In this document: positions 3,184 through 34,480 of the stretch, piece by piece | How the letters are laid out: each line of letters opens with the position of its first letter | Numbering within the stretch: position 1 is the first letter of the stretch | From: a virus | Taxonomy: Duplodnaviria; Heunggongvirae; Uroviricota; Caudoviricetes | IMG/VR virus record: IMGVR_UViG_3300032323_001205 | Coordinates: 26,919-90,918 of that record | Reading direction: 5' to 3' (one strand) | DNA length: 64,000 bases | The notes under the pieces: generated by a model | Seen by the model: the letters and a program-made list of their open reading frames with translations, nothing else | Told to the model about the DNA's origin: nothing | Databases searched by the model: none | Made by a program: the position numbers and the translations under genes

Positions 3184-3399
3184 TTATCGTCGGCGCACAA
3201 TACGTCCTTTAGTCAAATCGTACGGGCTGAACTCAACTTCTACTGTATCACCCAATAGAATTTTAATATCATGTTGACGCATTTTACCTGAGATATAACC
3301 AGTGACAGTAGGTCCACTGTTCAATGTTACTCTAAAGACAGCATTGGGTAATACATCGATTACCTTGCCGTCCATCCTAATACCTTCTTCTTTTGCCAT
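3184..3399 (-). CDS. infA: Translation initiation factor IF-1
   Basis: 71 aa. Near-collinear with bacterial IF-1 ([71 protein letters not shown] versus E. coli [24 protein letters not shown]...ISGKMRKNYIRILTGDKV...PYDLSKGRIV). S1-like OB fold. Confidence 0.9.
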
Positions 3400-10267: not shown

Positions 10268-11022
10268 TGATTGGATACAAACAAATGATTAGAATTTTTA
10301 TAATATTAGCTTGTCTGTTAAGTTTTAGTGCTAATGCACAGACAGTACCATTAACAGCACAAGCATGGTTAGTAGCTGATAGTAATGGAAGAATACTTGA
10401 AGGGTCTAACATGTCTGAAATACGCAGTATTGCAAGCATTACCAAACTAATGACTGCAATGGTTGTATTAGACAGCGGACAGTCATTGACTGAAATCATT
10501 CCAAAGAAACTATACAATAAACAATTGTCTAGACAGACACTAATTGATTTGGCAATTGTAAAAAGCGACAATAATGCTGCAAAAATGCTGTGCGATTACT
10601 ATCCCGGAGGATTCAAAGCTTGTGTAGAGGCAATGAATACCAAAGCAATATTATTACAAATGAATGATACTGTGTTTACAGATCCAACCGGTAGATATCA
10701 CACTAATGTAAGTACAGCAGAAGATTTGATTAAACTGGTATTTGCTGCAAGCAATTATCCATTGATTGTTGAAGCAAGTAACATGGATGCTGTACGTTGG
10801 CCTTTGAATAAAAAGAAGACAGCAGAGTTTAGAAATACTAATAGATTAGTGGGTAACGGTCACACGTTCTTAGTAAGCAAGACTGGTTTTATTAACAAAG
10901 CAGGCGGATGCATTGTTATGATGTTAGATACTGCAAATGGAATTAGGACCGTAGTCCTATTGGGTTCGAAAAATACTAAGACTCGTATCCCTGAAGCAAA
11001 AATGTTGTCAATGCTTCATTGA
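10267..11022 (+). CDS. D-alanyl-D-alanine endopeptidase/carboxypeptidase (PBP, peptidase S11 family)
   Basis: 251 aa. Signal peptide, then the three PBP active-site motifs in order: SITK (SxxK), SDN (SxN) and KTG (VSKTGFI). ATGA-type overlap with the preceding ORF. Confidence 0.8.
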   Translation: MIGYKQMIRIFIILACLLSFSANAQTVPLTAQAWLVADSNGRILEGSNMSEIRSIASITKLMTAMVVLDSGQSLTEIIPKKLYNKQLSRQTLIDLAIVKSDNNAAKMLCDYYPGGFKACVEAMNTKAILLQMNDTVFTDPTGRYHTNVSTAEDLIKLVFAASNYPLIVEASNMDAVRWPLNKKKTAEFRNTNRLVGNGHTFLVSKTGFINKAGGCIVMMLDTANGIRTVVLLGSKNTKTRIPEAKMLSMLH

Positions 11023-11322: not shown

Positions 11323-11516
11323 AGTGTAAAAGCTACATAATCTTGTTCTGATTCAAAACAAAAAATCCAACCACCTGACAAAAAATCGGCATTAGGATTT
11401 TCCATATACCTCCAATCATAACTACAATTTCGTTGACACCAATCAATAGTAGATTGCAGTTCACCGTGAGGTATACTAATTTTTATTTTGTATGACGTTG
11501 GAATGTTTATGGACAT
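11310..11516 (-). CDS. Hypothetical protein
   Basis: 68 aa ORF. Overlaps its neighbours by a few codons, typical of this array. Confidence 0.35.
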   Translation of the reverse strand: MSINIPTSYKIKISIPHGELQSTIDWCQRNCSYDWRYMENPNADFLSGGWIFCFESEQDYVAFTLWKT

Positions 11517-12099
11517 TTACCCCACCCTTTTTTTGAGTTTTTCCCTTTTGGAAACCTTCCGGTATGATCTCATCGGGGTTAATCATCATGTTAGTGATAC
11601 CATCAGTTAACCAAATTTTACCGGTCGATCTTTTGCTTAATGCGGAAATTCTTTTCAAGTGTCCTGTTTCTGCATTAACCTTTCCTTGAATCCGTCCGCC
11701 TTTGCGACATGATTCTAATCGTTGTATTGGATCACCAAACGCTCCTTTTCCAGAAGATATGGTCGCGGCACCACCTTTTTTACCTGCTTCGGACCAATTG
11801 GCTAATTTTTGAATTTTTCTCATGTGCCCGTTATTAGCATTTATTTTATCCCGAACAGTTCCTCCCAAAGAACTACTAATTTTTGCAGCCTTGTCTGTTT
11901 GACCAGTCAATAAGTAATAAGCTCCCAAATCTTCTTTCTTACCATATTGCTCATATAACTTCATATGTGCCATTGCATGTTCTTTTCTTGACAGTTCAAT
12001 TAAGTTTGATGGGTCATCAGTACCGCCCATATGTTTAGGAATAATGTGGTGTATATGCTTCATAGAAGTGCCTCTGCATGTTGTACTTCTATTTATCAT
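11476..12099 (-). CDS. HNH homing endonuclease
   Basis: HNH core HHIIPKHMGGTDDPSNLIELSRKEHAMAH. The track start at 12105 is TTG. In-frame ATGs exist at 12099 and 12063. The 12063 start has a GAGG Shine-Dalgarno and avoids overlap with the dCMP deaminase gene. Confidence 0.75.
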   Translation of the reverse strand: MINRSTTCRGTSMKHIHHIIPKHMGGTDDPSNLIELSRKEHAMAHMKLYEQYGKKEDLGAYYLLTGQTDKAAKISSSLGGTVRDKINANNGHMRKIQKLANWSEAGKKGGAATISSGKGAFGDPIQRLESCRKGGRIQGKVNAETGHLKRISALSKRSTGKIWLTDGITNMMINPDEIIPEGFQKGKTQKKGGVNVHKHSNVIQNKN

Positions 12100-12613
12100 C
12101 CCCAATTAGTTTTGTAAGTTTTACCCCACACTTTTCTAAAAAAAGCAGTCCTTCGTCAGTCCTATATACTTTTTTATATACTACTTCACTTACTCCCGCT
12201 TGATATATAGCCTTTGCACAATGTATACATGGGGCGTCAGTTGTAAATAAAGTTGATCCCGCGCTACTCTCAGTGCCCTGTGCTACCTTCATTAGGCAGT
12301 TCATTTCGGCGTGCAGTACCTCGTCCTTAGTCACTAATCGGTATCTGCGATTAGAACCCACTAGTGGATCAAATTCTGTATGCGGGAACTGTTCTACCTT
12401 CTCTGCGTCAGGTAAGAATCCAGCTTTCGCCGCGTTCATATATTCTTTGTACTCGCACTCGTTAGTCCATCCAGTGGGCATACCGTTGTATCCATAGCTA
12501 AGAATGCGATTCTCTTTTACAATAACAGCGCCTACTTGTCTACGAATTGCGCTTGATAGTTTGCTGGTAAGTTCTGCAACTTCCATATAGTAGTCAATAA
12601 ATTTTTGTTTCAT
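12089..12613 (-). CDS. dCMP deaminase (cytidine/deoxycytidylate deaminase zinc-binding family)
   Basis: 174 aa. Zinc-ligand motifs HAEMNCLM and PCIHCAKAI (H-x-E ... PCxxC). Confidence 0.85.
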   Translation of the reverse strand: MKQKFIDYYMEVAELTSKLSSAIRRQVGAVIVKENRILSYGYNGMPTGWTNECEYKEYMNAAKAGFLPDAEKVEQFPHTEFDPLVGSNRRYRLVTKDEVLHAEMNCLMKVAQGTESSAGSTLFTTDAPCIHCAKAIYQAGVSEVVYKKVYRTDEGLLFLEKCGVKLTKLIGDDK

Positions 12614-18938: not shown

Positions 18939-19979
18939 TCATTTTTTGGGGAACGGCCATGCACTATCCTGTGCTGTAAAGACTGTTCCCGGGGGAGGAC
19001 TTACTTTGCCGTCACTATGTCGAGTCCAACCAGCTGGAGTGCTCACATACTGATAGCGAGGATCATATCCCCAATCCGCATCATCCTGACCCTTTTCGTA
19101 ACCTTCTTCGTAGTTTTTGTTCTGCAGGCTAGCTTGTCCTCGGTTACCAGGGGTGTATTCATTACCTTCATAACCATCAGTGTAGCCACGATAGAATTCC
19201 GTAGAACCAGTCTTTGGCTCAGTCTTCACACTGTTAGCATTATGTTGTACAGGCTTGTCAAACTCAACCTTATCGTCGGGGTTTGCACCCACTTCGCCGA
19301 TAACTTCATAACGACATGCACGACCCTTAGCGTTGTTGTAATCTGTTGGGATAGAAACAACATCACGTGGATTGATTTTAACAATCACAACACGACTATC
19401 ACTGCCACCAAAGTGAGGAAGATATTCTTGGCTACAGAAGTGCAGACCAGTACTGCAAGTTTGATCCTTGTTGTCGTCAACTTCGTTGCGTTCCATTTCA
19501 ACAATTTTACCAACACTGTTATCCATCTTGCCTGTATGACAGTCAAAATAGTTTTGACGTACTTTCTTGTAAGCCAAAAAATGACCATCAGGAGTAATTG
19601 GCAAACTGTTCTTTTCCAAGAAGCCATACAGTTCATCAACTGCACGTTTGCTTGGGTTAGTCATCAAGTTCTCCATGAATGCAACAAGAGGCTCGATAGG
19701 GAAACCATCTTGCAACATTGCAATCATTCGGTTACTCAATGCATTGTGCATCTCCTTACCCTTCCAGAACAACTTTTCGCCCTGGACACTCACGTTGCCT
19801 TGACCGTAATTCAAAACGACCTTAACAGGCTCAATGATATTCTTAACCAAGTCCCAATCACTAGCCTTGATAGCTTCCAACACTTTGTTATAAGTGATGT
19901 GTGATTTACTAATTGTGTGAGGCTTGTTGCCAATCACTACAGTAATGTTACTGCCCTGAACGATATACGGATAACTCAT
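18939..19979 (-). CDS. rIIB: rIIB protein
   Basis: Strong collinear similarity to T4 rIIB (ENLMTNPSKRAVDELYGFL, YFDCHTGKMDNSVGKIV, DQTCSTGLHFCS, FGGSDSRVVIVKINPRDVVSIPTDYNNAKGRACRYEV). The track start at 20003 is TTG. The ATG at 19979 has an AAGGTG Shine-Dalgarno and abuts the rIIA stop. There is a ~100-aa G/Y/E-rich C-terminal extension relative to T4. Confidence 0.85.
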   Translation of the reverse strand: MSYPYIVQGSNITVVIGNKPHTISKSHITYNKVLEAIKASDWDLVKNIIEPVKVVLNYGQGNVSVQGEKLFWKGKEMHNALSNRMIAMLQDGFPIEPLVAFMENLMTNPSKRAVDELYGFLEKNSLPITPDGHFLAYKKVRQNYFDCHTGKMDNSVGKIVEMERNEVDDNKDQTCSTGLHFCSQEYLPHFGGSDSRVVIVKINPRDVVSIPTDYNNAKGRACRYEVIGEVGANPDDKVEFDKPVQHNANSVKTEPKTGSTEFYRGYTDGYEGNEYTPGNRGQASLQNKNYEEGYEKGQDDADWGYDPRYQYVSTPAGWTRHSDGKVSPPPGTVFTAQDSAWPFPKK

Positions 19980-19980
19980 T

Positions 19981-22143
19981 TTAAACACCTTTTGAAGAAT
20001 CAATCAAATTAATATACTCGGCAACATACATGCCGTGTGCGCTGTGTTTGCTGATGCTCTTAATCAACGGGTAACGTTGAAAAATTGCTTCAACCTCTTT
20101 GTTGTATTTGTCAATCAATGTAGCAGGGTCAACTGTTGTTGCTGTTACTACTTTGTACTGACGACACAACCATTCCAAACTCATTCTAACCTTATGGTCA
20201 CTTTCTTTCACATCCTTGAATGTGTTGAACAATGTCAAGTAAGGGCTGTGAGGATTTGTCACATGCTTAGTAGCATTATACTGATAAATCTCTTTCCAGT
20301 CAATACTTTGTTTGACCAAACCCATCACATCATTTTGACCCAACTTAGACAATTTCTCAGTCACAAATGTATCCAGATTGATCCAGTTCTTTTGTGTCTT
20401 GACCCAATCCAAATCACTTTTACGAACACCGTAAATTTCATTAGTGAAAATGTAACTATCACGCAAGTGTTGTTCCAAACTCTTGATATTTTCAACAGTA
20501 CCAAGGTTCTTGTAACCACTTAGTGGCAAGTAGTAATACGTTTCAGTAGCATCAAAACTGTTTGCTTTGCCACCATCACGCCATACCATATCAGCACGAT
20601 TGCGCCAACCACGACTACGACCTTCTTCCAATCGCATGATAGTAACATTCGCACCCATGCCGCCCTTACGATCCTTCTCAAGCAATTCACTTGCTTTGGC
20701 GATGCGATTAGTGGGAGGCATCATCAATTCAGCCAAGAAAGCAACCTTCTCAACCATCTTAGATTTATCAGCAGGCTCAATCACATACACATTTGATGTG
20801 TGTGTATCTGTCTTGATATTCTTCCAGTGATGTTTAGCACGTTCCAACGCACCAACCTTAGTGTCGTTGAACACAAAGTATGTTTCGTTACCTACACGGA
20901 TATCCCATTCTTCAAACAACACCTCAGTGTTATTTACAGTCTTGCGAGACTTAGTTGGCTTGTTATTAGAACAAGCCGCATAACTATTGGTCTTAGTAAA
21001 ACTACGAATTACAATGTTATACTTGCTAGCCAAGTCCTTAGTATCAAACTTGAATGTTTTGAATGCGTTCCAACGATTGGTACCTGGATCATACAATTCA
21101 AACTTAGTATCAGCCGCATACTTAATCACCGCACCCTTGAACAAGGTACCTTCGTCATAACGCTTTGCCAAGTAGATAGCACGTTCCCACAAGTTGTCAA
21201 TCTTATCTGCCTCTTGTGCCACGTGAATTGCCAATTGACTATTCAGCGCCATCAATTTGTTTTTGATAGCTTCGATTGTTTGTGGAATATAACTCAGACC
21301 TTCACGGCTTGCTTGAAAGTCAAGTTCACCGATCTTGAATTCCATCACAAGACCGCAACCCAACAAGCCATGCATACCACCAAGCACTTTGTCAGCATTA
21401 GGGATGTCAATAGGATACTTGATATTACCCATGATAGCATAACTGCTACGGGCATAACTATCGTTCGAATAGTGAACACCGGGGATGATGTTTTCTTCTT
21501 TATAATCGGGATCCTTGAATGTAAAATCAGCATTACCTGAAATTACAGGACGCAGTTTGAAATACTCATACACATAGCGAGCCTCGTCACGGAACTTGCC
21601 AAAGTCATACCGATCTGCTACTGCAAAGCGAACCTCAACACCGTTAGGGTCTGTAGTTTCTTCATCCATCATCAATGCGATAGATGGAACGCCTTGCTCA
21701 TTAATGAAGGCAGAGTAGATTCCCTTCTTACCGTTCTGTACCGCGGTAACCGTAAAATTGTCTGTATAAGAGAAGGGTGACTTTGAACCAAGACCAAGCG
21801 CACCGATAAATTCATTGCTTGCGGTCTTAGTGGATTCGAAATATGTAGTGTAGATATTAGTGACTTGGTCATGGCTCAGACCAGTGCCATAGTCACGAAT
21901 CGAAAAATAGGGTTCGATACTGTTAGGCAAGTGAACATCGAAGGGTGTATTTTGTTTGCCTGCCGCAACATGGCTGTCCACAGCATTGCAAGAAAGTTCA
22001 CGGATGATAGCACGAACCTTGTTCGCATACAGACCGGAACTTAGAATGCTAAAAGCCTTAGCACTATTGCGAATACGAAATTCACCAACGTCACTTACGT
22101 TGGAGATGATTGCTTCGTTTTGTGGTGCGTGATTGATAATCAT
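19981..22143 (-). CDS. rIIA: rIIA protein (GHKL-type ATPase N-terminal domain)
   Basis: 720 aa (T4 rIIA is 725). N-terminus aligns with T4 rIIA: KAFSILSSGLYANKVRAIIRELSCNAVDSH (N box), IRDYGTGL (G1), FIGALGLGSKSPFSYTDNF (G2). Confidence 0.9.
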   Translation of the reverse strand: MIINHAPQNEAIISNVSDVGEFRIRNSAKAFSILSSGLYANKVRAIIRELSCNAVDSHVAAGKQNTPFDVHLPNSIEPYFSIRDYGTGLSHDQVTNIYTTYFESTKTASNEFIGALGLGSKSPFSYTDNFTVTAVQNGKKGIYSAFINEQGVPSIALMMDEETTDPNGVEVRFAVADRYDFGKFRDEARYVYEYFKLRPVISGNADFTFKDPDYKEENIIPGVHYSNDSYARSSYAIMGNIKYPIDIPNADKVLGGMHGLLGCGLVMEFKIGELDFQASREGLSYIPQTIEAIKNKLMALNSQLAIHVAQEADKIDNLWERAIYLAKRYDEGTLFKGAVIKYAADTKFELYDPGTNRWNAFKTFKFDTKDLASKYNIVIRSFTKTNSYAACSNNKPTKSRKTVNNTEVLFEEWDIRVGNETYFVFNDTKVGALERAKHHWKNIKTDTHTSNVYVIEPADKSKMVEKVAFLAELMMPPTNRIAKASELLEKDRKGGMGANVTIMRLEEGRSRGWRNRADMVWRDGGKANSFDATETYYYLPLSGYKNLGTVENIKSLEQHLRDSYIFTNEIYGVRKSDLDWVKTQKNWINLDTFVTEKLSKLGQNDVMGLVKQSIDWKEIYQYNATKHVTNPHSPYLTLFNTFKDVKESDHKVRMSLEWLCRQYKVVTATTVDPATLIDKYNKEVEAIFQRYPLIKSISKHSAHGMYVAEYINLIDSSKGV

Positions 22144-22149
22144 AATATA

Positions 22150-22350
22150 TTAAACTGTTTGAGTTTGGATTGCTTCATAGACCATTTCGCGGACTACAGT
22201 ATCAGTTGCTTCCTCGAATCCATTCAATGTAGCGATATCATATAACACATCAACCACTTGGTCCCAATCCAAGTTATTTGCTTTTGCTGTCATAACAACA
22301 CCTTGAATCATTGCATTACCTGCATCCGAGAACATACCAAATCGTGTCAT
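22150..22350 (-). CDS. Small early protein, paralog of 22408..22623
   Basis: 66 aa. Shares ...EATDTVVREMVYEA with its neighbour (...EATDTAVRECVYDA). Own consensus promoter. Confidence 0.5.
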   Translation of the reverse strand: MTRFGMFSDAGNAMIQGVVMTAKANNLDWDQVVDVLYDIATLNGFEEATDTVVREMVYEAIQTQTV

Positions 22351-22382
22351 TTCAAGTCCTTTTCTTTACTATCTAAGATTCT

Positions 22383-22411
22383 ATTATAGCAGAAAGCCCA
22401 TTTATTGTCAA
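22383..22411 (-). promoter_or_regulatory. Sigma70 consensus promoter TTGACA-N17-TATAAT
   Basis: attata 22383-22388, spacer 17, tgtcaa 22406-22411. Confidence 0.7.
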
Positions 22412-22623
22412 ATATAGAAAGGAGTGTCAAAGCCAAGGGCGTCATAGACACACTCACGGACTGCGGTGTCAGTAGCCTCGCCAAAGTCTTCGGGGAAACG
22501 CTCAGCCAAACTTTGGAGTTCAGCAAGAACTTGGGGCCAATCCATTTTGAGTACTTTAGCACTACGCACGATTGCGTCAATTGCATCATCACCAAACTCT
22601 GTGTACATTGCGTATTTGGACAT
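22408..22623 (-). CDS. Small early protein, paralog of 22150..22350
   Basis: 71 aa. See the paralog evidence above. Confidence 0.5.
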   Translation of the reverse strand: MSKYAMYTEFGDDAIDAIVRSAKVLKMDWPQVLAELQSLAERFPEDFGEATDTAVRECVYDALGFDTPFYI

Positions 22624-22655
22624 TTTGTTTCCTTTACTTGACTGTCTAAGATTCT

Positions 22656-22684
22656 ATTATAGCAGAAAGCCCATTTATTGTCAA
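22656..22684 (-). promoter_or_regulatory. Sigma70 consensus promoter TTGACA-N17-TATAAT
   Basis: attata 22656-22661, spacer 17, tgtcaa 22679-22684. Confidence 0.7.
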
Positions 22685-22686
22685 AT

Positions 22687-22911
22687 TTAGGCGAACAAGT
22701 CGCCGTACATTTCTTCTTCCACAGCATCAAAATCATTGCGGATCCATTCGATAGAATAACCCTTAGATGCATACTCGTCGGCTAACACCTGCAATTCACG
22801 CAGGGCTTGCACAGCAGTCAGTCCATCATTTGCCATGAGGCTCAGATTGCTACAGTACATGAAATTGTTGCTGTCTTTGCGGGCACTAACTTGAACAAAT
22901 TGCTTAGTCAT
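22687..22911 (-). CDS. Small early acidic protein
   Basis: 74 aa with its own promoter. Confidence 0.45.
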   Translation of the reverse strand: MTKQFVQVSARKDSNNFMYCSNLSLMANDGLTAVQALRELQVLADEYASKGYSIEWIRNDFDAVEEEMYGDLFA

Positions 22912-22943
22912 TTCGAGTCCTTTAGTTAACTGTCTATGTATGT

Positions 22944-22972
22944 ATTATATACCCAAAACGATTTATTGTCAA
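22944..22972 (-). promoter_or_regulatory. Sigma70 consensus promoter TTGACA-N17-TATAAT
   Basis: attata 22944-22949, spacer 17, tgtcaa 22967-22972. Confidence 0.7.
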
Positions 22973-22985
22973 ATTTTGGAAACCG

Positions 22986-23008
22986 TAAAAAAGCCCCAAA
23001 CTCGGGGC
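22986..23008 (-). terminator. Intrinsic terminator downstream of clpP
   Basis: Minus strand reads GCCCCGAGTTTGGGGC followed by TTTTTT. Confidence 0.6.
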
Positions 23009-23022: not shown

Positions 23023-23613
23023 TTATAGTCGTTTATCAATGATTTTGTCAATCAAGCCATACTCTAGTGCTTGCTGTGCTGACATAAAATTATCACGTTC
23101 CATATCATTGGTTAATTGTTCAAACGTTTTCCCGGCACTATTATGCTTAACATAAATTTCAGTAAGATTCTTTTTCATAGCAAGAATTTCTTCTACTTGA
23201 ATCAACATATCAGTTGCCTGACCTCGGGCACCGCCACTTGGCTGGTGAATCATGTGTCGTGCGTTTGGCAGCATAAAACGTTTACTAGTAGCACCTGCTT
23301 GAGCAAGCAAACTACCCATGCTACAGGCTTGACCCATTACAATTGTATTAATGTCGGGCTTGATAAACTGCATAGTGTCATAGATTGCCATACCAGCAGT
23401 AACACTACCACCGGGGCTATTGATATACATACTGATATCTTTTCCACTGTCCTCACTCTCTAGGAATAGTAGTTGTGCAACAATCAAATTTGCCATTTGG
23501 TCATGTACTTCTCCCTCAAGCAAAATGACCCGGTCACGTAATAACCGACTATAAATATCATAACTCCGTTCACCCTTACTTGTGTGTTCGATGACGATTG
23601 GGACTAGACTCAT
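23023..23613 (-). CDS. clpP: ATP-dependent Clp protease proteolytic subunit ClpP (canonical cellular type)
   Basis: 196 aa. Catalytic-triad context [10 protein letters not shown] (Ser), MIHQPSGG (His), plus the [19 protein letters not shown] box. Confidence 0.9.
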
Positions 23614-23695
23614 AAGTTTCCTTTTTAAAAAATTTGCGATAAATACTGAATCGGTGCTATAATTAGCACTTCATCAACTTTTTGAGATATTATAT

Positions 23696-24799
23696 ATGAG
23701 ATACAACGAATTTGCAATAACTTTGGCTGAACGTGCTGCCCAACCAATAGCCGGTAAAGTTGATATTCAACCCCAATCTGTGACTAAGGGCCAAGTCGAA
23801 CAGGTGCTCCGTAAGAATGGTTATGAGGATTTGAAACCAAACGGAAACAAAATTAACGTATTGGTTCAAATTCCAGCTGGACAAAAGAAAAATGAGTTCC
23901 GTGCCGCTATTCTCAATGAAATTCTAGCGGTCTTAAAACAACAAATGCCAGAAGCTGACCCAGAATATAGTGCTGATCCAGGTATCAGTAGTTTGGGCGG
24001 CGTTGTATTCAGTAATAGCCCGGTAACAGTTGTGGTTAAAGACACTGGCAAACAAGGTGATAATAGTGCTGGTGTTGCTAACGAATTAGAATTGGCTAGT
24101 TTGTTACAGTCATTGATTCAGAAATATGGTTCAGCCAATGTTACATTTGTTGATCCGCGCGGTAAGAAAATGACTATTCGTAATTGTACAAACGTTGAAG
24201 TTGCTGGTCGTGACACAAGTGACCGCAAGAAAGCAGACGTTGTACTAACCAGTGGTCGTGGTTCGTTGCCAATCAGTATTAAGAAACTTGATGCTGACAT
24301 GTGGGAAAGTGCTGATAACTTGTTTGGTGAACGTGCCCGTGCTGTTTTAGATAAACTAATTAAAAACGGTGTTGTAGAATTGAATCAGATTGGTGAACGC
24401 AAAATGAAAACAGGTACTGTTCCTGTATATGCACTAAGCAAAGAGATTGTTATGGAACCAACTGAATCAGAGGCGTTAAGTGCTGTATTTGGCAATGACT
24501 TGAACCCTAAGGGAGGAGTCGTTGTTCAAACGTTTAAGCCTGAGCATTTCAAGCAAGTTGATAATAACGTAACAGTCGAATGTCACGCAGTTATTACTAA
24601 TGCCGCAGAGATTCCAGAAAGTCATATGATGGTTTGGTTACTACGCAATGACAGTACACGCAATGGTGGCTCATTAGGTATTGCTGGTATTCGCCCACTG
24701 GGTGTCACATTAACACGCGGTATTGGTAAAAAGGGTAACAAGGATGTTATTCTTGTTGACCAATTTGGTAATGTTGTCAATAATCCTAATCTTGGCTAA
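23696..24799 (+). CDS. Predicted capsid-targeted internal protein (CTS-like N-terminus MRYNEFAITLAE)
   Basis: 367 aa. N-terminus matches the MR-x-NEF-I/V-x-E family shared with the 51347-57046 genes. No catalytic motif recognised. A possible TTGCGA-N18-TATAAT promoter lies at 23634-23663. Confidence 0.5.
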   Translation: MRYNEFAITLAERAAQPIAGKVDIQPQSVTKGQVEQVLRKNGYEDLKPNGNKINVLVQIPAGQKKNEFRAAILNEILAVLKQQMPEADPEYSADPGISSLGGVVFSNSPVTVVVKDTGKQGDNSAGVANELELASLLQSLIQKYGSANVTFVDPRGKKMTIRNCTNVEVAGRDTSDRKKADVVLTSGRGSLPISIKKLDADMWESADNLFGERARAVLDKLIKNGVVELNQIGERKMKTGTVPVYALSKEIVMEPTESEALSAVFGNDLNPKGGVVVQTFKPEHFKQVDNNVTVECHAVITNAAEIPESHMMVWLLRNDSTRNGGSLGIAGIRPLGVTLTRGIGKKGNKDVILVDQFGNVVNNPNLG

Positions 24800-25291
24800 T
24801 TAGCATTTAAAAACGTCTTGTGTTTTAAACCACTTACGCATTCTCTGCCATTTTTTTAAAGGAACGCCGTTTCTTGCTAGTTTTTCTCTGAATATAAAAA
24901 AGCTAGGACCATGACTCATAATAGGGTCTTTTCCTAGCTTTATTCTTTTCTCACCTTCAATATCCCATTGATACTGATGGCACATTTCATGCGCTAGTAC
25001 TATTATCAGCCATTGACGACAGTACCATTTGTCCATTAATCGTATCTTGCAATTTGATTTACGGCTTGTGGGCCTGACAAATGACCCAAAACATAAGCCC
25101 CAATAATCTCTACAACGAGGAACCACTTCCAGTTCCGGAGTAGCTAACTTGTTGTTGAATATTGTTTTGTTAATTAACTTGTACAGTTCGGCAACTTCTT
25201 TCGGAGTGGTTCTGTACACAAGCCGCTTTTGCTTACTAATGCTAGGGAGATCCTCTAACATCAATTCGTGTAAAGACTTGTTTTTAAACAT
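24800..25291 (-). CDS. SprT-like zinc metallopeptidase
   Basis: 163 aa. HExxH in VLAHEMCHQYQWD. Confidence 0.5.
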   Translation of the reverse strand: MFKNKSLHELMLEDLPSISKQKRLVYRTTPKEVAELYKLINKTIFNNKLATPELEVVPRCRDYWGLCFGSFVRPTSRKSNCKIRLMDKWYCRQWLIIVLAHEMCHQYQWDIEGEKRIKLGKDPIMSHGPSFFIFREKLARNGVPLKKWQRMRKWFKTQDVFKC

Positions 25292-25344
25292 GTAGTATTT
25301 ATATCTTTGGAAAAAAAGTTTAATGTATTATTCCGATTAAATAT

Positions 25345-25692
25345 ATGTTTAGGAGAAATCAAATGGAAATTATTATAGCAGTTTTAGTACTTGGCGTTGC
25401 ACTTTGGTGGTTCTTTGTCCGTGAAGACAAGAAAACAGAAGATGTTGCACCTTACAAGATAGAAACACCGCCAGTTCAACTAGGTAGCCCTATTGCTGAC
25501 AGAGTAGAAACATCTGCCCCGGTTGCAACTGAAACTCCGGTTGAGGCACCAGCTAAAGCCCCAGTAAAAGCTAAGGCTCCGGCAAAAGCTAAAGCCCCAG
25601 TAAAAGTCAAAGCACCAACAAAAGCTAAGACTCCAGCTAAAACTAGAGCACCGGCAAAGCCTAGAGCAACAAAGACTAAACCCCAAACCTGA
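25345..25692 (+). CDS. Membrane-anchored Ala/Lys/Pro-repeat (histone H1/AlgP-like) protein
   Basis: 115 aa. TM IIIAVLVLGVALWWFFV, then PAKAPVKAKAPAKAKAPVKVKAPTKAKTPAK repeats. Confidence 0.5.
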   Translation: MFRRNQMEIIIAVLVLGVALWWFFVREDKKTEDVAPYKIETPPVQLGSPIADRVETSAPVATETPVEAPAKAPVKAKAPAKAKAPVKVKAPTKAKTPAKTRAPAKPRATKTKPQT

Positions 25693-26396
25693 TGAAAATA
25701 GGGTTTGATGTATTAAGTGATTTAAATCTAACCCCTGATGAAAATTTTAACTGGGAAAACAAAGCAACTAGCTTGTACTGTATAATCGCAGGAAATATCA
25801 GTGATGATTTGCGAACTATACATCAAACGCTTATGCACCTGTCAAGATTTTATCAGGGAATATTTTATATTCCGGGCTCGTTAGAGCTAAAGGATATTGA
25901 TCGTATTCCTGATAGGTTAGATGACCTTCACAAAATTTGTTCTTCGGTGAAGACAGTTGCATTATTACACAATCATGTTGTGGTAGTAGATGGTACTGCA
26001 ATTATGGGTGCCACATGCTGGTACGGTAATACCGCTGAACAAGATGCATTCACTGAATTAAAAAAAGATACTTATAGATATGAAGACATATCCTATATGA
26101 GTATGACTTTAGAAAGATTGCAATTACATTTAGATGTAAAAAAGATTATAATCGTTACTCACGCTGTACCTAGCGAGGAGTTATTTTTTGGAGAACTTCC
26201 AAACAATATTAAAGACCAAATGTCGGCTTCTGGAATATTAACTAGAGACAGTGAGCAGAAAGTGACTCACTGGGTTTACGGAAGCTATAATAAAACAGTT
26301 GATACTACCATAGATAATATCAACTATATTAACAATTCATATTATAAAAGAAAGCCCTATTGGGCTAAACGAATTGATATAGATTTAAGCCTCTGA
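25692..26396 (+). CDS. Degenerate metallophosphoesterase-like protein
   Basis: 234 aa. Ordered MPE-like blocks (FDVLSDLNL, IIAGNISDD, IPGSLE, IIVTHAVP) with non-canonical residues. Confidence 0.4.
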   Translation: MKIGFDVLSDLNLTPDENFNWENKATSLYCIIAGNISDDLRTIHQTLMHLSRFYQGIFYIPGSLELKDIDRIPDRLDDLHKICSSVKTVALLHNHVVVVDGTAIMGATCWYGNTAEQDAFTELKKDTYRYEDISYMSMTLERLQLHLDVKKIIIVTHAVPSEELFFGELPNNIKDQMSASGILTRDSEQKVTHWVYGSYNKTVDTTIDNINYINNSYYKRKPYWAKRIDIDLSL

Positions 26397-26690
26397 TTCT
26401 ACCTTAACCTGCAAAGGATATCCTTGACTACGTGCAGACACAGTTACTTCGATTCCCTTTTGTTCTGCAATCTCATAAGGTAAAACTGCTACTACGGCAC
26501 TACCTTGGTCATGAATATTATGTGTAATATTAGTAGCGGTGTCTTCTGTGTATTGAAAATACTCAATTAAGCTATTTACTACAAATTCCATGCTAGTAAC
26601 GTCATCATTCATATAGATGATTTTAAACATAGGAGGTTCTGCGAGTGCAAGATTTGGTTTGATTTTAATTTTAGTATCAGCTTTAGACAT
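26385..26690 (-). CDS. clpS: Clp protease adaptor ClpS
   Basis: 101 aa. Collinear with E. coli ClpS core (PPMFKIIYMNDDVTSMEFVVNSL...ATNITHNIHDQGSAVVAV versus [24 protein letters not shown]...ATQLMLAVHYQGKAICGV). Confidence 0.85.
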   Translation of the reverse strand: MSKADTKIKIKPNLALAEPPMFKIIYMNDDVTSMEFVVNSLIEYFQYTEDTATNITHNIHDQGSAVVAVLPYEIAEQKGIEVTVSARSQGYPLQVKVESEA

Positions 26691-26752
26691 AATTTTTCTT
26701 TAGTAATGTGTGCGAGTTCCCCCGCACACTTATTTATTGAACTTCTATTATA

Positions 26753-27196
26753 TTACTTAGTGTAAGTAATAGCAATAGTCTTGGGTTTTTGTTCTTCAGG
26801 GACTTTACGCTCTAAAGAAATTGTCAAAATCCCATTCTCAGACTTGGCTCCTGCAACTTCAACATGATCAGCTAGTGTCCATGTGCGTGAGAAACTACGT
26901 GCAGAGATACCACGATGTAGATATTCAACTTGGTTATCTAAATCAACAGATTGTTCGCCCTTAACTGTAAGTTGATTACGCTCAACTTGAATGTTAATTT
27001 CACCATCTTTAAAGCCAGCAACAGCTAACTCAATAGCAAAATTGTCATCACCGTGTTTGACAATGTTGTATGGGGGATAGTTTGTATTAGCTTGGGATGT
27101 TCGTAGTAGTTCGTCAAACATGTTGTCGAAACCTACTGCAAATTTGTGAATAGACGGAATGTCTAAGGAACGAAGGGTTAGTGTGTTGTTTGTCAT
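26753..27196 (-). CDS. Small heat-shock protein (Hsp20/alpha-crystallin)
   Basis: The ATG at 27196 has an AAAGGAGA Shine-Dalgarno (the track start at 27256 is GTG). The alpha-crystallin domain runs from NYPPYNIVKHGDDNFAIELAVAGFKDGEINIQVERNQLTVKG to TISLERK. Confidence 0.85.
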   Translation of the reverse strand: MTNNTLTLRSLDIPSIHKFAVGFDNMFDELLRTSQANTNYPPYNIVKHGDDNFAIELAVAGFKDGEINIQVERNQLTVKGEQSVDLDNQVEYLHRGISARSFSRTWTLADHVEVAGAKSENGILTISLERKVPEEQKPKTIAITYTK

Positions 27197-27303
27197 TTTT
27201 TTTCTCCTTTTAAGCAAGATGACATATTTCAGACCCGACCATCGGCATCTGAACACGTATTTATTACAGTAAAAATACGCAAAAAAATCTATTATTTTGT
27301 AAT

Positions 27304-27522
27304 TTAAAAGTTTTTCTTTGGAAGACTTTGGTCACGCAAATATTTTTGCCATCTACGTTTAGCCTGGCTTTTTGCCACCTTACGCCTTACCGTCGGTTTA
27401 ATAAACTCTTGCCGGTCACGGACTTCCTGAAGCAAGCCTACGTCATTGATTAATTTCTTAAACTTGCGTAGTGCTTTCTCAGTGTTACCGTCTACAACAA
27501 TTATTTTTCTTCCTCGTATCAT
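27304..27522 (-). CDS. rpsU: 30S ribosomal protein S21
   Basis: 72 aa. [32 protein letters not shown] aligns with E. coli S21 [32 protein letters not shown]. Confidence 0.85.
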
Positions 27523-28718
27523 AGTAAAGTTTTGGGCTGTAATATTTGAGCTTGATTAATATTTATCTTTTTGATATTATTTTCTCTATATTTCTTGGTA
27601 TGATACATGTGCGGCATAAGCACTTTCTCAATTTCAGTATGCAATCCTCGTGCTCCAGTCTTTAACTTCATGGTATTTTCAGCTAACTGTTCAATTGCAT
27701 CTTCTGTAAATTCTAAGTCGATTCCATCCAAGCTTAACAAGTATTTGTACTGGTCAATATAATTATTTTTTACTCCAGTCAATACTTCAATCATTTCTTC
27801 TTTAGACAAATTAGAAACACTAACTGTTGTAGTAAAACGACCGATAAACTCAGGAATCATACCAAACTTAGTTAGGTCATCAGGGGTAACATTCGTTAAT
27901 CCTATTTCTTTGCGATTGTCTTTGATTTCAGCGCCAAAACCAATACTAGTACCGTGTTCTCTGTTATTAATTATTTCTTTGAGTCCAACGAATGCGCCGC
28001 CGCCAATAAACAATATGTTTTTTGTGTTTATTTCTAGCATGTCTCCACCGGGATGCTTTCGCCCACCGCTAGCAGGTATACGGCATACAGTTCCTTCAAC
28101 TAGCTTAAGTAGTGCTTGCTGAACGCCCTCACCGGACACATCCCGTGTTATGCTAGCACTCTCACTTTTACGTGCAATCTTGTCAATTTCGTCAACAAAA
28201 ACAATTCCACGTTCTGCTAATTTCGGGTCTCCGCCGGCAGCATTAACTAGCATACTAATCATAGATTCAACATCGTCACCAACATATCCTGCTTCAGTCA
28301 AGCTTGTAGCATCGGCCACTACAAAAGGCACGTTGAGATATTTTGCTACTGTTTTTGCTAATAGTGTTTTACCTGAACCTGTAGGACCAATCAACAACAC
28401 GTTACCTTTAGAGATTTCCAAGTCTTTTGGCGGTTTATTGATACGCTTATAGTGATTAGCAATTGCAACACTTAGCACCATTTTTGCATTGTCTTGGCCT
28501 ATGATATGATTATCTAAATACTCTTTGATAGACTCGGGGTCATATACTATTCCGTCTCCTTTGTTTTCAATTTCAGAAACATCGTCTACAATTAGTTGGT
28601 TACATAATTCTATGCAAGCACTGCATATAGCTACATTCTCACTTACAATTAATTTTTTTACTACGTCTTTGTGGTTACCACAAAAGGAGCAATGATTTAG
28701 TTTTGTATCATTTGACAT
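27519..28718 (-). CDS. clpX: ATP-dependent Clp protease ATP-binding subunit ClpX
   Basis: 399 aa. N-terminal C4 zinc finger ([30 protein letters not shown]), Walker [17 protein letters not shown], Walker [11 protein letters not shown], and a GF loop. Confidence 0.9.
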
Positions 28719-28733: not shown

Positions 28734-29738
28734 CTAGTGTCTTGTCGAACATTTTTCTAATTTAACAACTGATAATTCTACTCTATATGCATCCTTAAGT
28801 ACAGCACTTAACACTGAGTTAGGTGAAATAGGTAGAGTTATTAGTCCTTGATCTTGCTGGTTACCGTATAAAACAAAGTTATTACCCAATACATAGTACG
28901 ACGGTTTCTTTCCATTAATAGAATTACTCTCATAGCAATTTCGATATACTTCTACCAGCTGTTTGTTTTTTATGGATAGTTGAATTCTAGCTTCATTGTA
29001 ACCAGTAAATGAATCATTAATTTTATGAACACGCAGAATGTCATTAAATTTATAAACTTCTTTTTTACCAATCAACAAATTGTTAGGGTCCTTAGCCATG
29101 ACAGTAACTGTACCCGATGATGGCTGCATGAATCCATTGCTACCATCTTGTAAAAGACCCAATACTTCATTAAGTGATACTATGTAATTGTAGTTCCAAT
29201 TCATTGAGTATGGGATTCGCAATAACATGTTTCTATGTGCATCTAGTCTAACTTCGTGCATACCTTGACGGATAGAGTATGCCTTCGTAGGATAATCATT
29301 TAAAACAGTGTCGAGAATCCTGTCACCTTGAAGTCTATCTCGGATATAAGATGAATGCTGAACTGTGTGCCGATGTCCTTCTAATTCTTTTATATTCGTA
29401 CCTGACCCTAACAATCTATTTTTAATCTTGCTATCAGAAACAGTAACGTCAACAGTGACCACTATATTCTTTCCGTTAGTAGATTCGGATACAATATTGT
29501 ACTTGTCAATGTAGCCAGAACTAAACACGGAAATTTCGTTCTTCATTAATTTGAGGTTATGCGATTCTCGTTCACTTAAGACAAGACTTCCCATCTTATA
29601 CTCAATAGCTTTAATGAAGGCATTGTGCCTAGCCTGTTCAGATGTAGCACCTACACCAGATACTCTAATAATGTCACTATTAGAGGTAGTAGCGCAACCC
29701 CCAAGCAAAAAGCTTGCCAATAGTATAATAAATTTCAT
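28734..29738 (-). CDS. Lipoprotein with LPP20-like N-terminal domain
   Basis: 334 aa. Lipobox LLGGC at the signal-peptide end. IRVSGVGATSEQARHNAFIKAIEY resembles the LPP20/FlgO-type VxGxG...A...A pattern. Confidence 0.55.
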   Translation of the reverse strand: MKFIILLASFLLGGCATTSNSDIIRVSGVGATSEQARHNAFIKAIEYKMGSLVLSERESHNLKLMKNEISVFSSGYIDKYNIVSESTNGKNIVVTVDVTVSDSKIKNRLLGSGTNIKELEGHRHTVQHSSYIRDRLQGDRILDTVLNDYPTKAYSIRQGMHEVRLDAHRNMLLRIPYSMNWNYNYIVSLNEVLGLLQDGSNGFMQPSSGTVTVMAKDPNNLLIGKKEVYKFNDILRVHKINDSFTGYNEARIQLSIKNKQLVEVYRNCYESNSINGKKPSYYVLGNNFVLYGNQQDQGLITLPISPNSVLSAVLKDAYRVELSVVKLEKCSTRH

Positions 29739-30397
29739 TATTGTTGAATGAAACGACTACGCAAGTAATTGCTTGCCCGTTCACTATTAGTATCCCATCT
29801 GATAACAACTTTAACAGTTTGTGGGCCTACAATTTCTTCATTGATGGTTCTAGCACCTTTGACGATGCCTTGTGCGTTAGTACGTACCGTGTCAGTCATT
29901 GTTCTAACTGTATCACTGGTATTTTTGCGTACAGCAATGTTGGTATCCTTCATTGCTTCTTCGTCAGTCATTTCGAATTCTTCATCACGCTTGATACGGC
30001 GTTTGATATTATCTTCTGCCTTCTCAATATTCTTAGCAATAGTGGTAGTTACTCTAGTTGATGAAATATCTTGTTTTACAAAACGAATCAACTTATCAAG
30101 TGCTTGGTCGTGTGCTACTTTGAATGCAGTCTCACGCATGACCTCACTAGCACCAAATGAAGGCGCATAACCTGTTACTTCGATTGCTTTGATATCACTC
30201 TTAATGCATGTTGCATCAAATACACCGGTAAAATATTTACAGTCCCATTCGATTTTGATACCTTGCCGTTTGAAACTAGAACTTAGTTTTTGCGCATTCA
30301 GTGCTTCGATGGGTGCCGATTCCACTGTTGCTTTTTTAGCAGATGAACATCCTGCCAAAGCAATAACTGTTGCAATAGCAATTAACGTGAGTTTCAT
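29738..30397 (-). CDS. Lipoprotein with LPP20-like N-terminal domain
   Basis: 219 aa. Lipobox ALAGC. IEVTGYAPSFGASEVMRETAFKVAHDQALDKL. Driven by class-2 promoter 30427-30455. Confidence 0.55.
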   Translation of the reverse strand: MKLTLIAIATVIALAGCSSAKKATVESAPIEALNAQKLSSSFKRQGIKIEWDCKYFTGVFDATCIKSDIKAIEVTGYAPSFGASEVMRETAFKVAHDQALDKLIRFVKQDISSTRVTTTIAKNIEKAEDNIKRRIKRDEEFEMTDEEAMKDTNIAVRKNTSDTVRTMTDTVRTNAQGIVKGARTINEEIVGPQTVKVVIRWDTNSERASNYLRSRFIQQ

Positions 30398-33571: not shown

Positions 33572-33686
33572 TATGCGCCTCCTTAGCGTTCTGATAAATT
33601 TTCTTTATTAAATCTACAATAGGGCGTATGATCCATACTCCCCATATGATGCCACATATAAAATATGCAAACTCGTTGAATGTCAT
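33549..33686 (-). CDS. Possible 45-aa single-TM micro-ORF overlapping the start of 32297..33571
   Basis: My translation is MTFNEFAYFICGIIWGVWIIRPIVDLIKKIYQNAKEAHNGNNCKT. Its ATG overlaps the stop of the SPFH gene as ATGA. Confidence 0.25.
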   Translation of the reverse strand: MTFNEFAYFICGIIWGVWIIRPIVDLIKKIYQNAKEAHNGNNCKT

Positions 33687-34480
33687 TTTGGTAGCATCAA
33701 ACTAGTCATATTGCTAGGAACAACAATGGTCTGCACTTTGCCGTTCTTGATACCTTCACTGATATTGAGAGCGGCTTGAGCATTCATGAATGCAATAGAA
33801 CTAGCTGAGTTATTAGCTAGAGCAGCCATACGGCGTGCTTCTGCTTCAGCAGTTTTAACTTCGATTTCTTTCTGCTTGAGTTCGTTCTTGCTACGAACCA
33901 GTTCGTTAGCACTTGCAACAACACTATCAGCAGGAGTGATATTACGAATCATAACCTGTGTGATAGTAATACTACCATCTAGCTTTTCTTCAGCAAGGTT
34001 CTTGGTGATTTCTTCCTTGATCATGTTCTCCATCTCAGTGCGATTGTCTGCCATGTCAAGTGCTTCATATTTACGTGCAGCCTTGTAGATAGCATTACGG
34101 GCATTCTGGACAACATAGTTGTACATCAAGTACACATCACCTTTGTGTTCTGCGTGGAAGCTACGATTCTTGCTACTGTAGAGTTCAGCGGCTTGATTCT
34201 TGTTGATGTTGTAGACAATCACAGCATCCACATCTTTCATGGTACTGTTGTCTTTAGCCACGGGAGTCATGTTGTCAATAGACACGTTGACATCCTTGTA
34301 GGGGAAAGTAAGAACATCACCGATGATAACCTGATTGAATGTGCCAGGCTCTAGTTCACCGGGTTTAACCTGCTTATCAAAGCCCACACGCACACCAACC
34401 TCACCAGTTTCAATGCGGGTACAAGCAGAAGTAAGTGCAACTGCGGCAGCAACAATAGAAAGTTTAATAACACGATTCAT
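33683..34480 (-). CDS. SPFH/band-7 (stomatin/prohibitin-like) protein with signal peptide
   Basis: 265 aa. Signal peptide/anchor MNRVIKLSIVAAAVALTSAC. SPFH-like block TGEVGVRVGFDKQVKPGELEPGTFNQVIIGDVLTFPYKDVNVSI and a C-terminal coiled coil. Confidence 0.5.
   Translation of the reverse strand: MNRVIKLSIVAAAVALTSACTRIETGEVGVRVGFDKQVKPGELEPGTFNQVIIGDVLTFPYKDVNVSIDNMTPVAKDNSTMKDVDAVIVYNINKNQAAELYSSKNRSFHAEHKGDVYLMYNYVVQNARNAIYKAARKYEALDMADNRTEMENMIKEEITKNLAEEKLDGSITITQVMIRNITPADSVVASANELVRSKNELKQKEIEVKTAEAEARRMAALANNSASSIAFMNAQAALNISEGIKNGKVQTIVVPSNMTSLMLPK

Follow-up and report, generated by a model that had tools for sequence, protein, structure and literature searches.

A ClpX–bS21–sHsp–ClpS–ClpP gene block, with IF-1 nearby, as a probable lineage-conserved possession of uncultivated jumbo myoviruses

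INTRODUCTION

Why should a phage encode its own ClpX, ClpP and ClpS close to a small heat-shock protein (sHsp) and the ribosomal protein bS21, with the translation initiation factor IF-1 at some distance from them? The question is raised by a stretch of 64,000 nt (hereafter the window, whose coordinates are used throughout) corresponding to positions 26,919–90,918 of the IMG/VR record IMGVR_UViG_3300032323_001205, a tailed phage (Caudoviricetes) represented by a scaffold of 348,244 bp, of which about 84 kb were covered by the analysis. The results favour the view that these genes constitute an auxiliary block conserved in a widespread, uncultivated clade of jumbo myoviruses (~300–360 kb, carrying rIIA/rIIB), that the block is an old possession of these phages and that it acts by the mechanism proposed below. 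The parts of this reading differ in strength: we are highly confident that the block is a real, functional and vertically inherited phage block, while the specific mechanism predicted for it has roughly even chances of being right.

Huge phages carry pieces of the translation and protein-quality-control machineries of their hosts. IF1, IF3 and S21 are found among their genes (Al-Shayeb et al., 2020, PMC7162821). bS21 is the commonest phage ribosomal protein; it occurs mostly in aquatic phages, is under purifying selection and was proposed to replace the bS21 of the host (Al-Shayeb et al., 2020; Chen et al., 2022; Mizuno et al., 2019). About 1,300 genomes and contigs of viruses were found to encode it, it is one of the exchangeable ribosomal proteins, and the bS21 of a Pelagibacter phage enters E. 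coli ribosomes (Mizuno et al., 2019, PMC6375957). In a set of 900 phage genomes, Hsp20 (n = 127) and two Clp families (n = 50 and 47) were encoded within 10 genes of bS21 (Chen et al., 2022). The combination described here is no single-genome curiosity, as hundreds of jumbo-phage contigs from the environment carry a strongly selected ClpX–bS21–sHsp–ClpS–ClpP block with IF-1 nearby.

RESULTS

The block is conserved in a phage clade

Six genes for proteins of cellular type lie on the minus strand of the window: clpX (27519–28718), an rpsU-like gene encoding bS21 (27304–27522), an Hsp20/alpha-crystallin sHsp gene (26753–27196), clpS (26385–26690), clpP (23023–23613) and infA, the gene of IF-1 (3184–3399). 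A preliminary description, made from the sequence alone, had placed the first five at 23023–28718 and IF-1 at 3184–3399, which was confirmed, and all of their products scored above the family thresholds. The first five genes had been described as a 5.7-kb minus-strand module, which is correct for the named genes, but three plus-strand genes (23696–24799, 25345–25692 and 25692–26396) and a SprT-like gene (24800–25291) are interleaved with them.

Scanning IMG/VR with the ClpX revealed at least 284 relatives. Gene order and counts were taken from the best 80 of them (74–94% identical, on contigs of up to ~360 kb), and the presence counts given below refer to 81 related loci. The order common to these loci is u424–u540–lipoprotein–lipoprotein–ClpX–(S21)–(DnaK)–Hsp20–ClpS–metallophosphoesterase-like gene–(SprT)–ClpP, where the metallophosphoesterase-like gene stands on the opposite strand and the genes in brackets vary in presence, DnaK being found in some loci. 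The 5.7-kb block was also present in independent Logan and ENA assemblies. The genes rIIA and rIIB (18939–22143, minus strand; phrog_612, E = 2e-134, and phrog_609, E = 1e-85) lie on the strand of the block and downstream of it, and they follow clpP in several of the related contigs, too. The pairwise dN/dS values of the block genes and infA, calculated from 41–64 distinct sequences per gene, were 0.09–0.20; these genes are under purifying selection.

Genes are frequently gained and lost in the slot between clpX and the sHsp gene. S21 was found in 68 of the 81 loci and is truly absent from about 10. The slot contained S21 alone in about 45 loci, S21 and DnaK in about 18 (some with an extra open reading frame, ORF), DnaK without S21 in two and neither of them in about 10, where the gap is ~115 nt long. 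The DnaK of these relatives, about 20 in number, is full-length (629–648 aa); the window phage has S21 and no DnaK. Four DnaK-bearing relatives have an additional Cys-rich ORF of 247 aa in the slot, and in two relatives it contains an ORF of ~165 aa resembling a GIY-YIG homing endonuclease.

Within the clade, the ClpP sequences are 73–100% and the ClpX sequences 74–100% identical, as against at most 64% and 53%, respectively, for the sampled cellular homologues. A scan of 185,579 species genomes with peptide patterns (effectively FVDEIDKI) gave no cellular ClpX above ~53% identity among the matches listed. In neighbor-joining (NJ) trees with 200 bootstraps, for which the cellular sample was thin and pattern-biased, the ClpX of the clade grouped with those of the phages Atu_ph07 and PA5oct, to the exclusion of every cellular ClpX in the sample (94%), and its ClpP grouped with those of the phages Phosso and PA5oct (90%), beside the gammaproteobacterial ClpP (62%). 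These phage-only groups, along with the low identity to the sampled cellular homologues, point to ClpX and ClpP being old genes of a phage lineage rather than the result of recent host capture.

Two related contigs deserve separate mention. NZ_JBBAKG010000031.1 (70 kb), deposited within a 'Haliscomenobacter sp.' metagenome-assembled genome (MAG), gave the best match of the species-genome scan, a ClpX of 59% identity encoded in the order u540–ClpX–Hsp20–ClpS–metallophosphoesterase, and it probably represents a prophage or a jumbo-phage contig placed in the wrong bin rather than bacterial chromosome. IMGVR_UViG_3300027749_002876 (524,565 bp) contains two diverged copies of the ClpX block (82% and 79% identical to the window ClpX) and of IF-1 in opposite orientations. 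It probably consists of two related phage genomes joined in the assembly, hence its length should not be taken as a genome size.

ClpX, bS21 and the small heat-shock protein

The product of clpX (399 aa) is a full-length unfoldase composed of a C4 zinc-finger N-domain and an AAA+ module. Its profile scores exceeded the cutoffs by far (NF003745, 514.4 bits vs. 359; TIGR00382, 489.3 vs. 370.75; PF06689, zf-C4_ClpX, 46.1 vs. 27), and it is 49.6% identical to E. coli ClpX. All four zinc-binding Cys residues are kept. K117 (Walker A), E177 (Walker B) and G144–G147 (GYVG pore-1 loop) correspond to K125, E185 and 152–155 of the E. coli protein, and likewise R220–H222 (RKH), I259–F261 (IGF), R294 (Arg finger) and R357 (sensor-II) correspond to 228–230, 268–270, R307 and R370. 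These functional residues proved to be invariant or near-invariant in 64 distinct clade sequences, and the dN/dS of the gene is 0.11.

The bS21 gene codes for 72 aa (TIGR00030, 46.9 bits vs. 28.95; PF01165, 52.5 vs. 27; phrog_21469). Its ATG overlaps the stop codon of clpX (ATGA) and it lacks a Shine-Dalgarno (SD) motif of its own, therefore translational coupling of ClpX and S21 is implied. The protein is far from all solved bS21 (the best match in the Protein Data Bank, PDB, reached ~34 bits). The search for its relatives gave 799 matches, and all 120 among the matches listed derived from the same phage clade (74–97% identity). The possibility that the S21 or IF-1 genes are pseudogenes was not borne out, as both ORFs are intact and their dN/dS values are as low as 0.085 and 0.10, respectively.

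The sHsp gene, present in 76 of the 81 loci, codes for 147 aa. Its ORF is readable up to a GTG at 27256, but the start codon is likely the ATG at 27196 because an AAAGGAG motif is found just upstream of it. The product matched PF00011 with 75 bits (cutoff 20.8) and phrog_432 (E = 4e-45), and its C-terminus, ...KTIAITYTK, includes I-A-I as the I-x-I motif. With the IbpA and IbpB equivalog models it scored 115–117 bits and missed the cutoffs (207–212), consequently it is regarded as an IbpA/B-like protein and not as an orthologue.

ClpP is of the canonical type

The clpP gene encodes a canonical ClpP peptidase of 196 aa without a propeptide. It was recognized by NF001368 (314.9 bits vs. 249) and PF00574 (272.5 vs. 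20.2; E = 2e-81) and fell narrowly below the TIGR00493 equivalog cutoff (301.9 vs. 308.6). The head-maturation model NF045542 was missed (109.1 vs. 120), and this match was restricted to residues 52–191, leaving the N-terminal region unmatched. The protein is 62.9% identical to E. coli ClpP, and its S98/H123/D174 triad, equivalent to S97/H122/D171 in E. coli, is invariant in 52 clade sequences. Thus, alignment to the E. coli proteins and solved structures confirmed that the catalytic context of ClpP as well as the zinc finger and Walker A/B motifs of ClpX are intact, and no degeneration was seen in the ClpP triad or the ClpX pore loops, which are invariant or nearly so in the clade. The N-terminal axial loop of ClpP is kept, and the N-terminus aligns with that of mature E. 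coli ClpP. Six of the eight residues in the IGF-docking pocket are identical (Y62, F82, I90, M92, F112 and L114), while L189 is conservatively replaced by I, and Y60 is replaced by S. The dN/dS of clpP is 0.11, and the closest known ClpP proteins are those of Atu_ph07 and Phosso (70% identity). The earlier assignment of this protein to the cellular type agrees with the NF001368 and NF045542 results and with the preservation of the axial loop and docking pocket, and it is plausible that it is other than the prohead protease.

The clpP gene is separated by ~2.8 kb from the run of genes from clpX to clpS, and it has its own promoter-like site and terminator. The latter is a hairpin with a T-run resembling intrinsic terminators (22993–23008, minus strand; GCCCCGAGTTTGGGGC followed by TTTTTT), which lies 15 nt past the clpP stop codon and was identified as a pattern match only.

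ClpS and the related ClpA-bearing viruses

The clpS gene codes for 101 aa, and its product belongs to the N-degron adaptors of ClpA/ClpC-type unfoldases (PF02617, 87.6 bits vs. 23). It remained below the cutoffs of all nine NCBIfam ClpS equivalog models (best 78.1 vs. 149) and is thus a divergent member of the family, 39% identical to E. coli ClpS. The residues of the N-degron pocket, N28/D29/D30/T32/M34/H60, are the same as N34/D35/D36/T38/M40/H66 in E. coli and are conserved in the clade, except for the D36 equivalent, which can be D, E or N. Similarly, the ClpA-contact residues E73/E76/K78 correspond to E79/E82/K84 and are kept as E, E and K/R in 58 sequences; the dN/dS of the gene is 0.11.

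ClpS docks on the N-domain of ClpA or ClpC, instead of which ClpX has a zinc-finger N-domain and no Clp_N. As the partner of ClpS is ClpA/ClpC and not ClpX, ClpXP and ClpS do not form one machine. The "complete ClpXP-plus-ClpS set" of the preliminary description thus fails as a functional unit, and its suggestion that N-degron substrates are re-targeted does not hold for the phage ClpX; such re-targeting is conceivable only through the ClpA of the host or a ClpA encoded elsewhere in the genome.

ClpA was sought in IMG/VR using a profile of E. coli and PA5oct ClpA, one viral ClpA and a clade-specific DNA pattern. None of the ClpA contigs among the matches listed was shared with the ClpX or IF-1 lists. 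The scans revealed a second abundant viral clade with at least 241 ClpA relatives, and the genes it has in common with the window are 40–60% identical. It appears to represent a ClpA-bearing viral lineage related to, yet distinct from, the window clade. The window also contains a DUF4337 gene (9391–9933, plus strand; 108.9 bits), and homologues of this gene with 37–62% identity are located 2–3 kb upstream of ClpA in the second clade.

IF-1 and ErpA

The infA product (71 aa; TIGR00008, 102.7 bits vs. 61.15) consists of a single S1-like OB domain and aligns over its full length with solved IF-1 structures in the PDB (E = 4e-22, ~60% identity). The gene adjoins an erpA-like gene for Fe-S cluster insertion (2840–3172, minus strand; NF010147, 146.9 bits vs. 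117). There are 241 relatives of this IF-1 in IMG/VR, and ErpA is adjacent in 61 of 80 related loci. The top-80 lists of ClpX and IF-1 have 18 contigs in common, on which the block and the IF-1 gene are ~25 kb apart.

Some relatives have an Fe/Mn superoxide dismutase (SOD) gene between IF-1 and ErpA; the SOD gene of the window (53231–53785) is 50 kb off. A neighbourhood of Clp unfoldase and initiation factor genes was noticed in other genomes as well. In E. coli, the order clpS–clpA–serW–infA–aat (922.9–927.4 kb) places IF-1 amid genes of the N-degron pathway. IF-3 adjoins ClpX in Atu_ph07, and an IF-1 homologue is located 1–2.5 kb upstream of ClpA in five IMG/VR contigs. This recurrent adjacency might have been retained from the gene order of the host, or it might have a function.

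DISCUSSION

Proposed mechanism and alternatives

The following mechanism is proposed for the block. Phage ClpX hexamers would dock via their IGF loops on the phage ClpP, providing the phage with an ATP-dependent ClpXP of its own for degron-tagged or stalled proteins. The IbpA/B-like sHsp, together with DnaK in the relatives that have it, may hold aggregation-prone proteins during the mass synthesis of virion proteins. ClpS would not work with ClpX; it could bind the N-domain of the host ClpA or of an undetected phage ClpA, and would either switch ClpAP to N-degron substrates or block other ClpA substrates. bS21, made in step with ClpX via the ATGA overlap, would replace the exchangeable bS21 of the host in the 30S subunit, where the extra IF-1 may support initiation, and these two proteins together could bias or sustain the translation of the largely SD-led phage mRNAs.

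Several points weigh against this reading. The functional steps are all inferred from homology. A tblastn search with three ClpA proteins over the 64-kb window and 2.37 Mb of related loci gave no match to the ClpA N-domain or D1 domain, nor was ClpA found within 10 kb of either window edge, which makes the host ClpA a more likely target of ClpS than a ClpA encoded elsewhere in the phage genome. The phage ClpS therefore points to host ClpA and not to the phage ClpX; a phage ClpS was already proposed to feed the host ClpAP (Iyer et al., PMC7824862). The variable presence of S21, truly absent from ~10 loci, and of DnaK, found in ~20 relatives and not in the window phage, indicates that the block is modular and not an obligate unit. 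With its opposite-strand genes and its promoter- and terminator-like sites, it is divided into several transcription units. In vitro translation by ribosomes with the bS21 of the Pelagibacter phage was poor (PMC6375957), therefore a "boosting" of translation should not be taken for granted. The grouping of the phage sequences in NJ trees with a thin cellular sample could come from long-branch attraction. Finally, the ClpP of PA5oct bears the electrospray ionization tandem mass spectrometry (ESI-MS/MS) tag used for proteins of the virion preparation.

The alternative that survives best, doubtful as it is, regards the genes as neighbours without a functional unit, that is, as independently useful auxiliary genes gathered in a permissive non-structural region, each acting separately on the host. 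The known partner of ClpS, the interleaved opposite-strand genes, and the distances of clpP, with its own promoter-like site and terminator, and of the IF-1 gene 23–25 kb away would all fit such an arrangement, as would the variable presence of S21, DnaK, SprT and a 367-aa gene among the relatives and the insertion of ORFs resembling homing endonucleases into the slot between clpX and the sHsp gene. In Atu_ph07 and Phosso, these families are dispersed over the genome. On the other hand, the ClpX–S21–...–Hsp20–ClpS order survives as far as PA5oct despite a protein identity of 31–44%, the ClpX–S21 overlap is found in both lineages, and the members are all tied to protein quality control or 30S initiation.

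It is unlikely that the block serves morphogenesis, with ClpP being or doubling as the head-maturation protease and ClpX, sHsp and DnaK as virion-assembly chaperones. ClpP-fold prohead proteases are frequent in tailed phages (NF045542 and NF045540 matches), RefSeq gives the name "head maturation protease" to the ClpP orthologues of Atu_ph07, PA5oct and phage G, and ClpA and ClpX were suggested to be able to assist virion assembly (Iyer et al., PMC7824862). However, the window ClpP missed the head-maturation model while exceeding the cutoff of the canonical subfamily by 66 bits. The axial loop and the pocket for docking of ClpX are both preserved in it, and the phage also encodes a ClpX that has the IGF loop. 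The clpP gene is not near any structural gene but has rIIA/rIIB and three promoters of the sigma-70 consensus as neighbours, and Atu_ph07 has a separate prophage-type Clp protease (PMC6102473). The mass spectrometry tag of the PA5oct ClpP does not discriminate either, since the same tag marks obvious enzymes of this phage, such as thymidylate synthase, FtsH, ligase and MazG. The RefSeq records concerned are NC_042013.1, NC_071039.1 and NC_023719.1, the GenBank versions of which say ClpP. The label is probably an over-transferred annotation, and canonical ClpP is thus likely mislabelled in RefSeq phage records.

Slightly less probable still is that the block is one functional kit for reconditioning the ribosomes and proteome of the host. 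In such a kit, the overlapping codons would set a fixed ClpX:bS21 ratio, and the overlap is indeed kept as far as PA5oct though its ClpX is 43% identical. ClpXP, together with ClpS acting on the host ClpAP, would clear ribosome-bound or aggregated host proteins, and bS21, IF-1, sHsp and DnaK would re-arm the 30S subunits. This idea is drawn from the conserved adjacency and the coupling only. If true, it could account for the replication of jumbo phages in starved, slow-growing or dormant cells, and the adjacency of Clp and initiation factor genes would be more than a relic of the bacterial clpS–clpA–infA neighbourhood. Paride, a relative of PA5oct, reportedly shows this type of replication.

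That the region is host DNA, either as an assembly chimera, which the preliminary description had considered, or as a very recently captured chromosomal segment, is hardly credible: the cellular type of all six proteins, the bacterial adjacency of clpP and clpX, the clpS–clpA–serW–infA–aat neighbourhood of E. coli and the deposition of one related contig within a bacterial MAG might suggest it, but the GC content is 0.35–0.41 along the entire window with no step at the Clp block, the same order with the same phage flanks, including rIIA/rIIB, recurs in ~80 independent contigs from many samples and in the separate ENA and Logan assemblies, the identities within the clade are well above those to cellular ClpX and ClpP, the order in the block differs from the bacterial clpP–clpX, and the Haliscomenobacter MAG contig is itself arranged as in the phages.

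Comparison with known phage and bacterial systems

The closest cultured counterpart of the block is that of PA5oct and related phages (Arenbergviridae), which makes its function testable in Pseudomonas. In the GenBank record of PA5oct, ClpX (169742–170968) is followed by a "30S ribosomal protein S21" (170955–171161) overlapping the end of ClpX, two hypothetical genes, a heat-shock protein and ClpS (172602–172904). After ClpS come SOD-like, Bax-inhibitor-like, FtsH, DNA ligase, canonical ClpP (180349–181020), GroES-like, DnaJ and ClpA genes. Thus, the order and strand of ClpX, the overlapping S21, Hsp20 and ClpS, with a canonical ClpP downstream, are as in the window, and both neighbourhoods include DNA ligase, SOD-like, metallophosphoesterase, GTP cyclohydrolase I/QueD and Bax-inhibitor-like genes. 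The proteins are 43–44% (ClpX), 52–55% (ClpP), 31% (ClpS), 28% (Hsp20) and ~40% over 47 aa (S21) identical. The two arrangements differ in that ClpP lies 8–10 kb past ClpS in PA5oct and only 2.8 kb past it in the window, and that PA5oct has two ORFs between S21 and Hsp20 as well as FtsH, DnaJ, GroES-like and its own ClpA. The ClpA, DnaJ and FtsH of the PA5oct cluster have no counterparts in the window or within 10 kb of its edges. Conversely, the PA5oct-type phages are without IF-1, and the SprT-like protease is part of the window block. The SOD-like gene directly after ClpS in PA5oct is annotated as "hypothetical protein", and its product is 38% identical to the SOD of the window.

Using tblastn, matches to ClpA, ClpS and ClpP were found at a PA5oct-like spacing in nine related isolates (MIJ3, Callisto, Paride, Cassandra, Deifobo, Ettore, 30-2, 30-3 and PAC2), with ClpX matches listed for two. 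Clp and S21 go unmentioned in the main text of the PA5oct and MIJ3 papers. The claim that the set of genes is unusual in a phage is therefore true for cultured phages in general, where ClpS was found in 17 of 50,697 phage records and IF-1 in 35, including several contaminated assemblies, but not in view of PA5oct, at least nine relatives and at least 284 IMG/VR contigs. The PA5oct-type block, ClpX–S21–Hsp20–ClpS...ClpP, is already known in cultured phages and metagenomes; the features particular to the present case are that the block is compact, that it is abundant and conserved among environmental jumbo phages and that it occurs jointly with IF-1 and ErpA.

Canonical ClpP, ClpX, ClpS and Hsp20 are also shared with Atu_ph07 and Phosso, which fall into the same phage-only groups in the trees. 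Atu_ph07 was described with ClpX, ClpP, ClpA, ClpB, ClpS and DnaJ, and also with Hsp20 (PMC6102473, PMC7824862), and Phosso has ClpX, ClpP, ClpS, a ClpA-like protein and IF-1. In contrast to the clustered genes of the window, the Clp families are scattered across these genomes of 470–490 kb; both phages carry ClpA-type genes, and Atu_ph07 has ClpB and DnaJ in addition. Bacillus phage G and the Lak megaphages are further huge phages with canonical ClpP and ClpX, and the latter also have IF-1. No ClpS match was found in phage G or the Lak phages. Phage G has a phosphoesterase gene two genes after ClpX, but it keeps the bacterial clpP–clpX order, and the weak grouping of its ClpX with those of Firmicutes (44% bootstrap) is a hint that it was acquired separately.

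Compared with the ClpXP and ClpS–ClpAP systems of E. coli, the domain architectures and all mapped catalytic, pore-loop, zinc, pocket and ClpA-contact residues are alike. The differences are that the order is not clpP–clpX, the ClpP has no propeptide, clpA is missing beside clpS, the N-terminal extension of ClpS is ~6 residues shorter, the identity is 39–63%, and the Clp genes of the window are virus-encoded and stand beside sHsp and bS21 genes. As for bS21, in the Bacteroidota-infecting clades of Chen et al. its gene is found amid terminase, capsid and prohead-protease genes with late expression, whereas in the window it follows clpX in a non-structural region near rIIA/rIIB. The window protein also lacks the N-terminal extension noted by Al-Shayeb et al.

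The source phage and its host

Besides rIIA/rIIB, the phage context of the window includes an ATP-dependent DNA ligase, an exonuclease, an endonuclease and many auxiliary genes. A megablast search of the 5.7-kb region against the 50,697 phage records gave no match, and rIIA is at most 43% identical to its counterparts in cultured phages; judged from these comparisons, the window phage has no close cultured relative. A tRNA scan and an Rfam search over the window gave no match.

SD 5-mers were present upstream of 24 of the 65 window genes, compared with 3% in the background (approximately ten-fold enrichment). This argues for a host using SD initiation and against a Bacteroidota host. The latter, suggested by the MAG bin and by the bS21 phages of Chen et al., was rejected on the grounds of the SD enrichment and the position of ClpP next to the gammaproteobacterial ClpP, which together make weak evidence.

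Between clpP and rIIA (22150–22995, minus strand), an 89-nt direct repeat occurs in three copies, which are 71–75% identical to the reference copy. Each copy includes a perfect TTGACA-17-TATAAT promoter and an AAAGGA SD motif and is followed by a small ORF (74, 71 and 66 aa) without family match; the 71- and 66-aa ORFs look like paralogues. The repeats look like strong early promoters of an early-gene region read by the sigma-70 polymerase of the host. Promoter-like sites in the whole window were not above chance (42 vs. 39.2 expected), among which the three 12/12 matches stand out.

Other genes in and around the block

Two predicted lipoprotein genes (334 and 219 aa; 28734–30397, minus strand), the translations of which show a signal peptide and a Cys, are located upstream of clpX. 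The pair was found in the same order before clpX in 64–68 of the 81 loci and gave a weak FlgT_N-like match only. On the other side of clpS, the metallophosphoesterase-like gene (25692–26396, plus strand; phrog_1649, E = 1e-8; dN/dS 0.16) was detected in 75–76 of the 81 loci and in NZ_JBBAKG010000031.1. It had no Pfam match, and its metal-binding motifs look degenerate by eye. A gene of metallophosphoesterase type occurs within a few genes of ClpX or ClpP in the window clade, in PA5oct (EST35_0248) and in phage G (gp260). The neighbouring small ORF (25345–25692, plus strand; 19–24 of 81 loci) encodes a protein with a hydrophobic N-terminus and an Ala/Lys/Pro-rich tail, for which no family match was obtained. 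It is followed by the gene of the SprT-like zinc metalloprotease with a HEMCH motif (24800–25291, minus strand; PF10263, 31.6 bits vs. 25.6; 55 of 81 loci; dN/dS 0.09) and by a variable insert encoding a phage protein of 367 aa (23696–24799, plus strand; phrog_12709, E = 2.5e-33; 20 of 81 loci).

Farther from the block, genes for a D-Ala-D-Ala carboxypeptidase (10267–11022, plus strand; Peptidase_S11, 120 bits), a dCMP deaminase (12089–12613, minus strand) and an HNH endonuclease (11476–12105, minus strand) were identified. The carboxypeptidase is uncommon among phages, and its position is kept in the relatives. A dense run of auxiliary genes at 33683–34480 and 53231–63863 codes for an SPFH/Band-7 protein, the SOD, three GNAT acetyltransferase matches, an NAD-dependent epimerase, a SAM synthetase (MetK), two radical-SAM proteins (one of them QueE-like) and an FAD oxidoreductase. 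Just past the window edge, Bax-inhibitor-like, aldolase, QueD/PTPS, APS-kinase, GTP cyclohydrolase I and histone-like Hc1 genes are present.

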